Assembly (NCBI RefSeq): GCF_003334315.1
Contig: NZ_QOWR01000085.1
Strand: one strand, 5' to 3'
From: Escherichia coli
GTDB lineage: Bacteria; Pseudomonadota; Gammaproteobacteria; Enterobacterales; Enterobacteriaceae
DNA length: 11,574 nt
In this document: positions 1,698-6,283 of the stretch, piece by piece
Layout of the letters: each line of letters begins with the position of its first letter
Numbering within the stretch: position 1 is the first letter of the stretch
The notes under the pieces: generated by a model
Told to the model about the DNA's origin: nothing
Seen by the model: the letters and a program-made list of their open reading frames with translations, nothing else
The model's database searches: none
Program-made: the position numbers and the translations under genes

Positions 1698-2229
1698 GGG
1701 CTGGTTTATTGTATGCCAAATGATTATTAAAAAGGTTGTGTTAATAACAAAATCCGAAATAATATGCCTGCATATTTTTATCTTGCTTATATTCTGCATA
1801 TTGTGCATAGCAGGCTCATCCCTGCAATCAAAACTGTATGATGAGTATTTTTTGTTTTCCTTTTTTCCAGTCATCTGATGATGACCTGCTTCTTTTTAAT
1901 CCGGATCGACATCAGTTTTTTAAGATAATTCCTGCGAGTTATATGCATAAATACCACAAACTCCGCATTTTATGTGGTTGGGAGTTGCCGGGCGCGCAGT
2001 GAGTTTGCTAAGAAAACTCCTGCATGGTGAATCCCCCTGTGCGGTGGGGTGATACCATTAACCTTTTCTGTCGCCGACAGGTATCACGAACATTTTGTTC
2101 ACCGGGAGGCACCCGGCACCATGCACTTCAATAGATTCTCTCCACATTATGGATATTCTTTCAGAATATCCCACGCAGACTTTGTGTAAATGTTAACAAA
2201 TGTGCGTTTTATTTGATCTGATTCGCTGT

Positions 2230-2259
2230 TTGAGCGTCCAAAACAACGGTATATATAAT
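2230..2259 (+). promoter_or_regulatory. Candidate sigma-70 promoter for the lipoprotein genes
   Basis: TTGAGC(2230-2235)-N18-TATAAT(2254-2259), about 30 nt upstream of the ATG at 2289, which has the RBS GAGGAAAAATG. Confidence 0.4.
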
Positions 2260-2288: not shown

Positions 2289-2717
2289 ATGGGTTTTCGT
2301 AGCGCATCAATTCTTACGTTGATTATTAGTGGGATTATTATCGGGTGCACTGATGCTGTATCGACAAATTATCATGACCGTACATCATATTACTCCGATA
2401 AAGCAATAGAGACACAGTATGTGAGTTCATCTGAACGTACTTCTGATGTTAGTGAGGATATCCGTCTGTATGCCCATCAAATCAAGAGCGCCATCGAAAA
2501 ACAGTTCGGGGATGCGAGTAAGTATTCAGGAAAAGAGTGTACACTGAGAATGCATATGGCCCCGAATGGCCTTCTACTGGAGGTTAAAAGAGAAAGTGGA
2601 GACCTCGATTTATGTCGTGAAGCGATGAATGCGATAAAGAATGCTGATATACCTGCCCCCCCTTCGCCGGAAGTATATAAAGTATTTCAAAATGGGGTGC
2701 TGGATTTTAAACCCTGA
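2289..2717 (+). CDS. Lipoprotein with TolA C-terminal (domain III)-like domain, copy 1
   Basis: 142-aa ORF with a strong RBS. The signal peptide ends in the lipobox IIIG|C (Cys20, Thr at +2), followed by an S/T/Y-rich linker. The C-terminal ~82 aa, YAHQIKSAIEKQFGDASKYSGKECTLRMHMAPNGLLLEVK...PPSPEVYKVFQNGVLDFKP, is nearly colinear with the C-terminus of E. coli TolA as I remember it, including the C-x24-C pair. Confidence 0.85.
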   Translation: MGFRSASILTLIISGIIIGCTDAVSTNYHDRTSYYSDKAIETQYVSSSERTSDVSEDIRLYAHQIKSAIEKQFGDASKYSGKECTLRMHMAPNGLLLEVKRESGDLDLCREAMNAIKNADIPAPPSPEVYKVFQNGVLDFKP

Positions 2718-2867: not shown

Positions 2868-3263
2868 GTGGGATTAAAGAAAATCGTTATGTTGACTTTT
2901 TGGGGCGGTTTTGTTGCGGGATGCACACCTTTACACCCTTCAGATTGCCACAAAACTACTGCTACAGGTAGTTGCAGTTCAGGACGCTGGGATGATCAGG
3001 ATGAATGGGGGGCGCAAGCGCGGGGAATCAGAGCTGCAATTAATGCCAAACTTGATGAGCCGCATAACTGGAAAGGGAAAAAATGCAGGTTGCATATGGA
3101 ATTCTCTCAGGATGGCACGGCGTTAAAAATATCTACCAGTAACGGTGATAAAGCCTATTGCGAAGCGATAAAGTCCGCAGCTCATAAAGCCAAATTTCCG
3201 GCCTTCAACAATCCGGAAGTCTACAGAGATTTTCAGAAATCTGGCTTTGACATGCGAGGTTAG
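2868..3263 (+). CDS. Lipoprotein with TolA domain III-like domain, copy 2 (diverged paralogue)
   Basis: 131-aa ORF with a GTG start, 6 nt after the GAGGAG RBS. The signal peptide MGLKKIVMLTFWGGFVAG|C has its lipobox Cys at residue 19. The C-terminal ~80 aa aligns without gaps to copy 1 (about one third identical by hand), sharing GK.C.L.M, the C-x24-C spacing and PEVY..FQ. Confidence 0.8.
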   Translation: MGLKKIVMLTFWGGFVAGCTPLHPSDCHKTTATGSCSSGRWDDQDEWGAQARGIRAAINAKLDEPHNWKGKKCRLHMEFSQDGTALKISTSNGDKAYCEAIKSAAHKAKFPAFNNPEVYRDFQKSGFDMRG

Positions 3264-3412: not shown

Positions 3413-3514
3413 ATTGCATCGTCTCCAGCATATATATCAATTAAGGCTCTGATTGATGTGTCTGAAAGCCTACACATAATAACTATGCCATCCGTTCCGT
3501 GCGGAGGTGAGGCT

Positions 3515-3730
3515 ATGAAATCCATGGACAAAATTTCAACAGGCATTGCCTACGGCACCTCCGCAGGCAGTGCTGGCTACTGGTTTTTACAGTTGCTCGA
3601 TAGAGTAACTCCGTCACAGTGGGCTGCAATCGGTGTGCTGGGTAGTCTGGTATTTGGCCTGCTGACGTACCTGACAAACCTTTATTTCAAGATTAAAGAA
3701 GATAAGCGCAAGGCTGCGAGAGGTGAATAA
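3515..3730 (+). CDS. S: Class II holin (pinholin), phage 21 S-type, with dual-start motif
   Basis: 71 aa, [26 protein letters not shown]...[15 protein letters not shown], almost identical to my memory of S21/EssD. The Met1-Lys2-Ser3-Met4 dual start gives the antiholin and holin forms. The RBS GGAGGTGAGG lies upstream. The tracker's GTG at 3458 is an unlikely start. Confidence 0.9.
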
Positions 3731-4227
3731 TGCCTCCATCATTACGAAAAGTCGTTGCCGCTGCTATTGGTGGCGGAGCAATTGCTATAGCATCAGTGTT
3801 AATCACTGGCCCAAGTGGTAACGATGGTCTGGAAGGTGTCAGCTACATACCATACAAAGATATTGTTGGTGTATGGACTGTATGTCACGGGCATACAGGA
3901 AAAGACATCATGCTCGGTAAAACGTATACCAAAGCAGAATGCAAAGCCCTCCTGAATAAAGACCTTGCCACGGTCGCCAGACAAATTAACCCGTACATCA
4001 AAGTCGATATACCGGAAACAACGCGCGGCGCTCTTTACTCATTCGTTTACAACGTGGGTGCTGGCAATTTCAGAACATCGACGCTTCTTCGCAAAATAAA
4101 CCAGGGCGATATCAAAGGCGCATGTGATCAGCTACGTCGCTGGACATATGCTGGCGGTAAGCAATGGAAAGGTCTCATGACTCGTCGTGAGATTGAGCGT
4201 GAAATCTGTTTGTGGGGTCAGCAATGA
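3730..4227 (+). CDS. R: SAR endolysin (GH24 lysozyme, phage 21 R-type)
   Basis: 165 aa. The N-terminal Gly/Ala-rich, weakly hydrophobic segment [20 protein letters not shown] is a signal-anchor-release domain. The catalytic pattern E-x8-D-x5-T is present in [16 protein letters not shown]. The start abuts the holin stop (TAATG). Confidence 0.9.
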
Positions 4228-4688
4228 ACAGAGTAACCGCGATTATCTCCGCTCTGGTTATCTGCATCGTCGTCTGCCTGTCATGGGGTGTTAATCATTA
4301 CCGTGATAACGCCATCGCCTACAAAGAACAGCGCGACAAAAATGCCAGAGAACTGAAGCTGGCGAACGCGGCAATTACTGACATGCAGATGCGTCAGCGT
4401 GATGTTGCTGCGCTCGATGCAAAATACACGAAGGAGTTAGCTGATGCGAAAGCTGAAAATGATGTTCTGCGTGATGATGTTGCCGCTGGTCGTCGTCGGT
4501 TGCACATCAAAGCAGTCTGTCAGTCAGTGCGTGAAGCCACCACCGCCTCCGGCGTGGATAATGCAGCCTCCCCCCGACTGGCAGACACCGCTGAACGGGA
4601 TTATTTCACCCTCCGGGAACGACTGGTAATGATGCAGGCCCAACTTGAAGGTGCTCAGCAATACATAACCGAGCAGTGTTTAAAGTAA
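4224..4688 (+). CDS. Rz: i-spanin Rz
   Basis: 154 aa counted from the ATG at 4224, which forms an ATGA overlap with the endolysin stop. It has an N-terminal TM helix ([18 protein letters not shown]) and a coiled-coil periplasmic domain. The sequence resembles RzpD/RzpR. Confidence 0.9.
4444..4629 (+). CDS. Rz1: o-spanin Rz1, embedded in the +1 frame of Rz
   Basis: 61-aa lipoprotein with lipobox VVVG|C and a Pro-rich mature part ([22 protein letters not shown]). It matches RzoD/RzoR as recalled. Confidence 0.9.
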
Positions 4689-4825
4689 AATCTTAACTAC
4701 AATATGATTCATTTTGATGATTGTTTCATAAGGAACAGTGAAGTAAGATCTAAGAGGAGTTAAATTTTATACAGTATAATCATAATATTGCAGCAAGGTG
4801 GTTATAATTGAAAGAATATTTAGAT

Positions 4826-6283
4826 ATGAATACATCTCATGTAAGAGTTGTTACTCATATGTGTGGGTTCCTGGTTTGGCTCTATAGTCTTTCAATGTTG
4901 CCACCAATGGTTGTAGCATTGTTTTATAAAGAAAAAAGCCTGTTCGTTTTCTTTATAACTTTCGTTATATTTTTTTGCATTGGTGGCGGAGCGTGGTATA
5001 CAACTAAGAAATCTGGCATTCAATTACGTACCCGTGATGGGTTTATTATAATTGTAATGTTTTGGATTTTGTTTTCTGTTATTAGTGCATTCCCTTTATG
5101 GATTGACTCAGAACTTAATTTAACGTTCATTGATGCTCTGTTTGAAGGGGTTTCTGGAATAACAACAACAGGAGCAACTGTAATTGATGATGTTAGTTCA
5201 TTACCTCGGGCATATTTGTACTATCGGTCACAGTTAAATTTTATAGGTGGTTTAGGAGTTATTGTTCTGGCGGTTGCTGTATTGCCATTATTGGGTATTG
5301 GTGGTGCAAAGCTTTATCAGTCAGAAATGCCGGGGCCATTTAAGGATGACAAACTCACTCCCCGCCTGGCCGATACGTCACGGACACTGTGGATAACTTA
5401 TTCTTTATTAGGTATTGCTTGTATTGTCTGTTATAGACTTGCAGGAATGCCTTTGTTTGATGCTATTTGTCACGGGATTTCCACAGTTTCGCTTGGTGGT
5501 TTCTCAACTCATAGCGAGAGTATCGGATATTTTAATAACTATTTGGTTGAGCTGGTGGCTGGTTCTTTTTCCCTGCTATCGGCTTTCAACTTCACTCTTT
5601 GGTATATTGTTATTAGCAGGAAAACGATAAAACCTTTAATCAGAGATATTGAACTTCGTTTCTTTCTGTTAATAGCCTTAGGGGTGATCATTGTTACCTC
5701 TTTCCAGGTCTGGCATATAGGTATGTATGACTTGCATGGAAGTTTTATTCATTCGTTTTTTCTTGCCAGCTCCATGCTCACTGATAATGGTTTAGCTACG
5801 CAGGATTATGCAAGTTGGCCCACGCACACGATAGTGTTTTTGCTGTTGTCAAGTTTCTTTGGGGGATGTATAGGTTCAACTTGTGGTGGAATTAAGTCAC
5901 TTCGATTTCTTATACTTTTCAAACAAAGCAAACACGAGATAAATCAGCTTTCTCATCCCAGAGCGTTGTTGAGTGTAAATGTAGGAGGGAAGATAGTTAC
6001 AGATCGTGTAATGAGGTCTGTATGGAGTTTCTTTTTTCTTTATACTCTCTTCACGGTGTTTTTTATACTGGTGTTAAATGGTATGGGATATGATTTTCTT
6101 ACATCATTTGCAACAGTGGCTGCATGTATTAATAATATGGGATTAGGTTTTGGGGCTACTGCATCGTCATTCGGAGTGCTTAATGACATTGCAAAATGTT
6201 TAATGTGCATAGCTATGATTCTTGGTCGCCTTGAAATTTATCCTGTTATTATATTGTTTTCAGGTTTTTTTTGGCGCTCCTAA
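4826..6283 (+). CDS. trkG: Trk-system potassium uptake membrane protein TrkG
   Basis: 485 aa from the ATG at 4826 (MNTSHVRVVTHMCGFLVWLYSL...), which I recognise as Rac-prophage TrkG. It is polytopic, with repeated selectivity-filter-like Gly motifs (TTTGAT, LGGFS, CGGIKS, NMGLGFG). Spot counts of three 60-nt lines at 4981-5160 gave 25-48% GC (mean about 37%), against 48% for one flank line (6601-6660). An upstream TTG at 4808 has a better RBS (AAGGTGG, 6-nt spacing) and would give 491 aa. Confidence 0.9.
   Translation: MNTSHVRVVTHMCGFLVWLYSLSMLPPMVVALFYKEKSLFVFFITFVIFFCIGGGAWYTTKKSGIQLRTRDGFIIIVMFWILFSVISAFPLWIDSELNLTFIDALFEGVSGITTTGATVIDDVSSLPRAYLYYRSQLNFIGGLGVIVLAVAVLPLLGIGGAKLYQSEMPGPFKDDKLTPRLADTSRTLWITYSLLGIACIVCYRLAGMPLFDAICHGISTVSLGGFSTHSESIGYFNNYLVELVAGSFSLLSAFNFTLWYIVISRKTIKPLIRDIELRFFLLIALGVIIVTSFQVWHIGMYDLHGSFIHSFFLASSMLTDNGLATQDYASWPTHTIVFLLLSSFFGGCIGSTCGGIKSLRFLILFKQSKHEINQLSHPRALLSVNVGGKIVTDRVMRSVWSFFFLYTLFTVFFILVLNGMGYDFLTSFATVAACINNMGLGFGATASSFGVLNDIAKCLMCIAMILGRLEIYPVIILFSGFFWRS

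Follow-up and report, generated by a model that had tools for sequence, protein, structure and literature searches.

STnc100 was first reported among the Hfq-associated RNAs of Salmonella Typhimurium prophages. In EDL933, an E. coli O157:H7 strain, eleven transcribed copies are known, one of them confirmed by Northern blot, and for some of these copies the ratio of ribosome footprints to RNA reaches 3.2 (PMC5331693). The copy just downstream of stx2B has been described both as EcOnc27 and as sRNA103 (PMC12711010; PMC7873438); when it is overexpressed the transcripts of fimZ and espA become more abundant, and overlapping SNPs have been reported as predictors of HUS (PMC12711010). In at least eight Sakai prophages Tree et al. 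placed such RNAs downstream of pR′ and ahead of the lysis genes, a location also described in PMC7873438, with convergent anti-sRNAs as their partners, and they reported Hfq crosslinking and Northern bands of about 177-247 nt for EcOnc04, EcOnc05, EcOnc06 and EcOnc27 (PMC4104026). In EPEC, the stability of PasD1 and PasD2 depends on Hfq and both have RIL-seq partners (PMC8550237); they are considered to be structural homologues of STnc100 (bioRxiv 10.64898/2026.05.13.724894).

The window, by which we mean the whole 11,574-nt stretch of E. coli DNA that was analysed, contains a lambdoid prophage late region. It encodes DUF1367, YbcO and DUF1133 proteins, the last of which (702-1244) also passes the Pfam threshold for antiterminators of the Q21 type, followed by two lipoprotein ORFs with TolA C-terminal domains, a P21-type holin/lysozyme/Rz cassette (3458-4688), trkG and the terminase genes. 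Between the gene for the Q-type antiterminator and the lysis cassette, and on the strand of the late genes, lies a structured block that the original prediction had not recognised as a known RNA family and for which it had proposed an Rfam scan. When the whole window was scanned at the gathering thresholds the single match was to the curated family STnc100 (RF02076), at 1992-2178 on the + strand, with 86.6 bits against a gathering score of 47 (E 6.7e-18) and with the model covered from position 1 to 206 of 206. Twelve diverse relatives that were re-checked also match RF02076 above this score. A more permissive scan of 1200-2300 found no other RNA family in the block at E ≤ 10; models of riboswitches, ribozymes, AsxR/AgvB and tRNAs had no match in that interval at the same threshold, and ARAGORN found no tRNA or tmRNA genes in the window. 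The block, which is unannotated in RefSeq, is a copy of a catalogued and already known family, of which it is an ordinary member with a chimeric tail. Of 5426 complete E. coli genomes, 921 contain the 1.4-kb stretch around it, in most cases at an identity of at least 99%.

The window copy has in common with the members of STnc100 the closing helix, the CCCCC/GGGG hairpin, the CCGGGAGGCACCCGG hairpin and the location in a prophage late region. EcOnc27/sRNA103 and EcOnc04, 05 and 06 of O157:H7, as well as PasD1 and PasD2 of EPEC E2348/69, belong to the same family on the basis of their probe sequences and structure; the published probes for EcOnc04, 05, 06 and 27 (PMC4104026) match, as reverse complements, middle domains or tails recovered here for the family. 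These RNAs, like the one in the window, occupy ‘moron’ sites that are preceded by the late promoter and followed by the lysis genes. They differ from the window copy in their tails and putative seeds, and while the O157 EcOnc RNAs face a convergent anti-sRNA (AsxR or AgvB) and have a bidirectional terminator in common with it, the window has no partner of this kind. By analogy with these sister copies we consider it likely that this copy of the STnc100/PasD/EcOnc27 family, at about 1992-2214 (+), is made in the lysogen as an RNA that associates with Hfq and acts in trans. A σ70 promoter of its own would give a discrete RNA of about 190-255 nt, with its 3′ end predicted to be at the weak hairpin and U-run of 2173-2214. 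The RNA would bind Hfq and base-pair with targets in trans, and during lytic growth Q-modified polymerase would read through the RNA gene. The features of the locus are collected in the table.

Table. Features of the STnc100 copy and of the adjacent DNA, in coordinates of the window
Feature	Position	Strand	Basis
Conserved upstream region: promoter DNA or 5′ leader of the RNA	1947-2021	+	Homology; the Rfam model covers 1992-2021
Local hairpin GAGTTT/AAACTC, inside the conserved upstream region	2001-2006 with 2013-2018	+	
P1, 5′ strand of the closing helix (GCAUGGUG)	2022-2029	+	Rfam consensus, MFE fold, covariation
P2 hairpin, CCCC(C) - UGUGCGGU - GGGG	2033-2049	+	Rfam, MFE, alignment
Middle domain, 8-bp helix GUGAUACC/GGUAUCAC	2049-2087 (2049-2056 with 2080-2087)	+	MFE fold
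Small hairpin within the 13-nt palindrome, enclosed by the 8-bp helix	2069-2072 with 2076-2079	+	MFE fold
P3 hairpin, GAACA-UUU-UGUUC	2088-2100	+	MFE fold
P4 hairpin, CCGGG-AGGCA-CCCGG, holding the GGGAGG ‘Shine-Dalgarno-like’ motif	2102-2116	+	Rfam, MFE, alignment
P1, 3′ strand (CACCAUGC), including ATG 2121-2123	2117-2124	+	Rfam consensus, MFE, covariation
22-codon ORF, judged not to be a gene	2121-2189	+	Start codon not conserved; spans the mosaic joint
Replacement 3′ tail	2125-2214	+	MFE fold; comparison with L011, L050 and mEp460
Tail hairpin without U-run	2151-2159 with 2163-2171	+	MFE fold
Weak, imperfect terminator-like hairpin, then UUUUAUUU to 2214	2173-2207	+	MFE fold
Promoter-like site, TTGAGC-18-TATAAT	2230-2259	+	10/12 matches
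First lipoprotein ORF with TolA C-terminal domain	2289-2717	+	PF06519, 82.6 bits; lipobox-like IIIGC
Second lipoprotein ORF with TolA C-terminal domain	2868-3263		

The observations behind the original prediction proved to be largely accurate, while its interpretation as an attenuator with a mini-ORF is not supported. All of the strings that it had quoted are found exactly at the coordinates given for them: GGAGTT (1981-1986), AACTCC (2015-2020), ATGGT (2024-2028), CCCC (2034-2037), GGGG (2046-2049), ACCAT (2054-2058), GTGATACC (2049-2056), the 13-nt palindrome (2068-2080), GGTATCAC (2080-2087), the P4 hairpin (2102-2116) and the ATG at 2121, whose ORF (2121-2189) translates to MHFNRFSPHYGYSFRISHADFV as stated. 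The block is also GC-rich as described, with a G+C content of 0.56 over 1981-2125 compared with 0.335 over 1700-1980 and 0.32 over 2190-2288. The interval 2019-2216 folds with a minimum free energy of -64.4 kcal/mol compared with -47.8 ± 4.1 kcal/mol for dinucleotide shuffles (z = -4.1), none of 200 of which was as good; for 1981-2189, the exact span originally proposed, z was -3.2. The MFE fold includes the CCCC/GGGG pairing, the 8-bp helix and the CCGGG/CCCGG hairpin, and each of them corresponds to an element of the family consensus. ATGGT does not pair with ACCAT; in the MFE fold, in the Rfam model and in the relatives described below, the partner of 2022-2029 is 2117-2124. Since ACCAT sits in a variable, non-conserved domain and the alternative helix is not kept, the proposal of two mutually exclusive folds is unsupported. 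The pairing of GGAGTT with AACTCC does appear in the MFE fold of 1981-2189, but it is absent from the closest relative and competes with the local GAGTTT/AAACTC hairpin.

Relatives were collected by exact-pattern scans of the conserved cores, because a plain BLAST search against phages mostly matched only the 40-nt 5′ core. IMG/VR was scanned with the 5′ core and one genome per species with the 3′ core, which gave 219 elements, 166 of them unique and 107 non-redundant at 90% identity; these 107, from Escherichia, Salmonella, Klebsiella, Raoultella, Enterobacter, Kosakonia, Pantoea, Erwinia, Rahnella, Cedecea and others, were aligned with MAFFT. The P1 closing helix shows changes on both sides in seven of its eight pairs, a level of covariation that was reached by none of 500 shuffles, and when the strands are slid as a control the pairing falls from 94.7% to about 45%. 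Among 42 relatives the equivalent of P3, a hairpin directly 5′ of P4, covaries at eight of eight pairs and 97% of its cells are paired. P2 is paired in 96.7% of cells with almost no variation in sequence, and its GCGG loop motif is nearly invariant. P4 is essentially invariant in sequence across the 107 relatives and nearly invariant in the viral sample as well. The viral sample was selected only on the P1/P2 5′ string, which left P4 unconstrained, and the genome sample only on P4, which left P2 unconstrained, so that the invariance of the two hairpins is not only a matter of ascertainment. The conservation of P2, P4 and the junctions goes well beyond what a base-pairing sRNA would usually require. 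A structure-aware test of the window for P1, P2 and P4 found all three, with P1 enclosing the CCCC(C)/GGGG and CCGGG-AGGCA-CCCGG hairpins in perfect pairing; indeed every helix of the 5′ domain is perfect in the MFE fold of the window copy, which reproduces the architecture of the family. The helix order (a closing helix, a 4-bp arm, a middle arm and a 5-bp arm abutting the 3′ strand) bears only a loose resemblance to that of a tRNA. Possible likenesses to boxA/boxB (nut-like) elements, CsrA sites and CRISPR repeats did not fit the invariant positions.

Between P2 and P3 the domain is variable. In most relatives the P3 loop is complementary to a segment found 0-7 nt after P2, predicting a pseudoknot that is absent from the RF02076 structure line in the Rfam match. 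Counted on fixed MAFFT columns only 38.8% of cells are paired, which is low because the 5′ arm begins at varying distances, 0-7 nt, after P2; the column count was therefore replaced by per-sequence complementarity with shuffled and internal controls. Complementary runs of at least 5 nt are present in 93 of the 107 relatives, made up of 76 distinct sequence pairs, and runs of at least 6 nt in 77/97 compared with 9/83 for an adjacent internal control window; the mean run is 6.4 compared with 4.2 when the arms are shuffled. That the middle domain is, in most members, a pseudoknot supported by many differing compensating sequences is an addition of the present comparison, and the covariation in P1, P3 and the pseudoknot shows selection on RNA structure in the family. 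The window copy has a minority topology, in which the 8-bp helix is equivalent to the pseudoknot helix. Whereas most members have the pseudoknot, here the 3′ arm precedes P3 rather than lying inside its loop and the fold is thus nested, with a helix that encloses a small hairpin.

Upstream of P1 the window sequence (1947-2021) shares homology with the consensus for this region in E. coli copies, ...TAAAT-N5-CACAATTCAG...GGTTGACAGTTGTCTG...GAGTTTGTTAAAAGAAACTG. A -10-like hexamer ending 5-11 nt before P1 is found in 39 of the 107 relatives, compared with 18.9 ± 3.8 for shuffled sequences and 10-12 at displaced positions. Such hexamers are found upstream of P1 in many genera, in copies that are not from E. 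coli, and there are 25 strong full promoters where 5.1 would be expected. In the window the promoter scan found none directly upstream of the RNA; the -10 and -35 candidates are weak, with the -10 candidate, TAAGAA, agreeing with the consensus at three of six positions. The Northern sizes of the O157 copies (177-247 nt) leave room for a start as far as about 70 nt upstream of P1, and together with the conserved upstream block they suggest that copies of the E. coli type, including that of the window, start about 55-70 nt upstream of P1.

A second kind of short RNA is made in phage late regions. The lambda 6S RNA, StxS and IsrK are constitutive leader RNAs derived from pR′, which end at a terminator that is read through by Q-modified polymerase. 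They arise from the Q-loading promoter directly after the Q gene, while the STnc100 copy of the window is found some 650 nt beyond such a unit and its fold is unrelated to theirs. The stop codon of Q is directly followed in the window by a site resembling a promoter, a -10-like repeat and a strong terminator, an arrangement that recurs after DUF1133-type Q genes at four other loci; the pR′-type unit of the window is most likely at about 1241-1351, where there is a sub-threshold match to isrK. The possibility that STnc100 is itself driven by the Q-loading late promoter was therefore discarded for the window. In common with the sister copies of STnc100, StxS and IsrK bind Hfq (PMC7873438).

The window copy also departs from the family at its 3′ end. 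STnc100 RNAs usually end with a linker and a GC-rich terminator with a U-tail, and 66 of the 107 relatives have a terminator of their own ending 27-92 nt after P1, none being detectable in the other 41. Most E. coli copies have tails other than that of the window, ending in a GCCCCUCUCCGGAGGGGC terminator. The 3′ hairpin of the Rfam model aligns in the window to 2151-2171, which has no U-run and where non-canonical pairs are flagged, this tail being a foreign module. From 2125 onwards the window tail is found only together with TolA-like genes, and in two other loci (L011 and L050) and in phage mEp460 the 5′ domain joined to it is another one, of the pseudoknot type. The window shows 100% identity to mEp460 from 2102 to the start of the lipoprotein gene and is also identical to it over 2022-2049, but the two are unrelated in the middle domain and upstream, so that P4 (2102-2116) forms a mosaic joint. 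More generally the upstream, middle and tail modules of the E. coli copies have been reshuffled: one type of middle domain occurs with at least five types of tail, and tails are common to differing types of middle domain. The window copy is thus chimeric, its tail belonging to the TolA-like lipoprotein moron and replacing the usual linker and GC-rich terminator, and the invariant cores are the joints at which prophages swap modules; the latter, too, is an addition of the present comparison. An antiterminator pairing between the 3′ strand of P2 (GGAGGGGC) and the common E. coli terminator (GCCCCUCU...) was considered, and it proved to be specific to that terminator, being absent from other genera and from the window tail.

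Substitution of the native linker and terminator, which is usually the Hfq-binding module, might leave this copy silent or might allow read-through into the lipoprotein gene. At the extreme the copy would be a non-functional remnant, a recombination scar in which the invariant cores are simply exchange joints, the native 3′ module is lost and the RNA is not expressed. The sharpness of the mosaic boundaries, which fall exactly at the P1/P2 and P4/P1 cores in the comparison with mEp460, would fit with this, as would the recombined middle and tail types, the constant association of this tail with TolA-like genes and the weakness of the promoter candidates. We nevertheless think it unlikely. The 5′ domain is fully intact and its bit score equals that of copies with a native tail; the chimera is found at an identity of at least 99% in 783 E. 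coli records and, with the same layout, in mEp460, which is a viable phage; and the covariation of P1, P3 and the pseudoknot argues for selection on structure in the family.

Read-through is also the starting point for a cis-acting leader, in which a transcript starting upstream of P1 would continue into the TolA-like lipoprotein genes and the folded domain would affect the stability, translation or termination of the mRNA. The original prediction had offered a cis-regulatory leader, an attenuator or a small RNA controlling these genes. That the block is a structured RNA rather than coding sequence, and that it may be a small RNA, holds; the attenuator and the control of the lipoprotein genes are not supported. 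The terminator of the tail is weak and the tail and lipoprotein genes are inherited as one block, which together with the 41 relatives that have no detectable terminator would favour a leader. However, between the RNA and the lipoprotein ORF there are both a terminator-like hairpin with its U-run (2173-2214) and a promoter-like site (2230-2259) that matches at 10 of 12 positions. Across the family, where homologues could be detected, the relatives are co-oriented with the holin in 20/20, the lysozyme in 23/23 and Rz in 20/21 cases and lie downstream of Q in 7/7. They are often directly before holins, which belong to three non-homologous Pfam families; the other genes that follow encode a SASA (sialate) esterase, KdgM porins, NlpC/P60 proteins, TolA-like lipoproteins and tRNAs. 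This diversity of unrelated downstream genes argues against gene-specific control, as do the terminators that 66 of the relatives have of their own, and in tandem arrays each copy has its own promoter-like site and terminator. One exception is a subclass in Kosakonia, Klebsiella and Enterobacter that lies 33-200 nt upstream of an ORF for a KdgM-family porin, mostly with no detectable terminator and in one case in a neighbourhood that is not prophage; similarly some relatives are directly before or between tRNA genes and have no terminator of their own. While these copies speak for a leader, the published sister copies are discrete RNAs bound to Hfq, and for the window we regard a cis-acting leader as rather improbable.

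Among such leaders, attenuators and riboswitches resemble STnc100 in having a promoter-proximal domain closed by P1, conserved junctions, a pseudoknot and often an intrinsic terminator afterwards, but the family differs from them in having neither conserved exclusive pairings nor a conserved leader peptide, nor, outside the KdgM subclass, a consistent class of downstream gene. Neither is supported for the window, where P1 and the tail hairpins coexist in one MFE fold, which leaves no switch, and where the exclusive pairing is not conserved. The put RNAs of HK022, a lambdoid phage, are cis-acting antiterminators and likewise compact multi-helix structures; they are encoded shortly after a phage promoter and in the same orientation as the operon that follows. 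They act on early operons, and the terminators that come after them are read through, whereas STnc100 copies accumulate as terminated RNAs.

A broader possibility, which we hold to be speculative and improbable, is that the 5′ domain, with P1, the invariant P2 and P4 hairpins and their loops, and the pseudoknot that the Rfam structure line lacks, is a functional RNA module in its own right and more than the scaffold of a base-pairing sRNA. Its partner would be a particular protein, RNA polymerase, a nuclease or a small ligand, for example, and its effect would be exerted in cis on the sequence joined to its 3′ side. If so its targets would be the tails of sRNAs, tRNAs, the mRNAs of KdgM porins and perhaps that of the TolA-like lipoprotein. 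This would explain why loops and junctions are nearly invariant across genera, why tails are shuffled and why there are copies with no terminator. The invariant P2, P4 and junctions, along with the copies that precede porin and tRNA genes with no terminator, hint at a function of the folded domain beyond the label of a trans-acting sRNA.

That the 22-codon ORF is translated as a small protein or leader peptide, with its ribosome-binding site masked by P4 as originally suggested, is very improbable: although GGGAGG does lie inside P4, 11 nt before the ATG, and some EDL933 copies have the footprint ratios mentioned above (PMC5331693), this is not a translation unit, since ATG is present at the equivalent position in only 19 of the 107 relatives (the others having ACA, GCA, ATA, ACG and so on, changing to match their own 5′ strand of P1), the frames opened there run for between 2 and more than 46 codons into unrelated tails, the ORF spans the mosaic joint and GGGAGG is conserved whether or not an ATG follows. 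With its start codon inside P1, the mini-ORF is a by-product of the P1 and P4 sequences.

The reading of the block as an attenuator with a mini-ORF can therefore be set aside, and the interest that remains lies in the family rather than in this locus. RNAs of the STnc100 type are among the most numerous annotated sRNAs of enterobacteria and one copy adjoins stx2, with overlapping features that are reported to be predictive of haemolytic uraemic syndrome (PMC12711010). Besides the pseudoknot and the module joints, the present comparison adds that copies of this domain are also found ahead of porin genes, as a leader, and next to tRNAs; all three points could guide experiments on the family.

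Copies of STnc100, a prophage small RNA family, are lined up in tandem, three to five of them on a single strand and spaced by about 220-400 nt, at loci L174 (6323-7018), L175 (894-2010) and L005 (2265-3380). Each arrayed copy usually has its own promoter-like site and its own terminator, and at L174 the terminator of the last copy adjoins the start of the holin gene. At five loci tRNA genes, among which tRNA-Arg(UCU) recurs, are interleaved with STnc100 copies or lie about 10 nt directly 3' of them on the same strand; these tRNA-adjoining copies are without a terminator of their own. In one subclass, from Kosakonia, Klebsiella and Enterobacter, an ORF for a KdgM-family porin (PF06178) lies 33-200 nt downstream and the terminator is mostly undetectable. 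At the porin-linked locus L199 a LuxR-type regulator and a 569-aa secreted protein, rather than phage genes, make up the neighbourhood. The STnc100 domain upstream of these porins looks like an mRNA leader.

Features of the window and of STnc100-bearing loci (L numbers)
Feature	Position	Remarks
Promoter-like TTGATT-17-TTCAAT	within 1241-1351	Immediately 3' of the Q-like gene stop codon
Second -10-like TATGCT	within 1241-1351	At about +1 relative to the preceding site
Strong terminator AAAAAAACCGC-TTAAT-GCGGTTTTTTT	1325-1351	About 50 nt past TATGCT
Promoter-like AAGACA-18-TATAAT	within 1615-1700	10/12 matches
Clean intrinsic terminator, then a T-run	1672-1691 (terminator)	3' of AAGACA-18-TATAAT
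trkG, potassium transporter	4808-6283	AT-rich (30-37% G+C); between Rz and ynaK/terminase genes
STnc100/tRNA loci	L228 3717-5512; L002 8044-8560; L005 4009-4160; L128 5491-5933; L098	
Porin-linked STnc100 loci	L135, L154, L164, L176, L184, L199, L215, L225	e.g. L199 1844-2763

The real pR'/tR' leader of the prophage probably lies just after the Q-like antiterminator gene of the window, at 1241-1351. The identical arrangement of promoter-like site and terminator is found 3' of DUF1133-type Q genes at four other loci (L039, L134, L148 and L175), and the Rfam search gave a below-threshold match to isrK at 1278-1351 (21.6 bits, E 0.036). Beyond the terminator lies an ORF of 45 codons without a Pfam match (1373-1510), an arrangement reminiscent of the Gifsy-1 isrK-orf45 unit. 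The pair of promoter-like site and terminator at 1615-1700, for which there was no matching Rfam family, would yield a transcript of about 50 nt.

Downstream of the window STnc100 copy, the paralogous ORFs 2289-2717 and 2868-3263 are 28-31% identical and each carries a TolA C-terminal domain. In RefSeq the sole annotation of the first, which has a lipobox-like IIIGC, is a truncated tolA pseudogene (corresponding to 2458-2718); despite this label the full-length ORF is open and conserved, and its counterpart in phage mEp460 is annotated as 'TolA protein'. Further on, trkG is a Rac-prophage-like cargo insertion into a late region that is otherwise complete.

When the window is compared with mEp460 (L242, 2440-2800), the invariant cores of STnc100 (window 2022-2049 and 2102-2124) coincide with sharp mosaic boundaries between the prophages, at which 100% identity gives way to unrelated sequence. 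The cores appear to be homologous-recombination joints for the swapping of moron modules.
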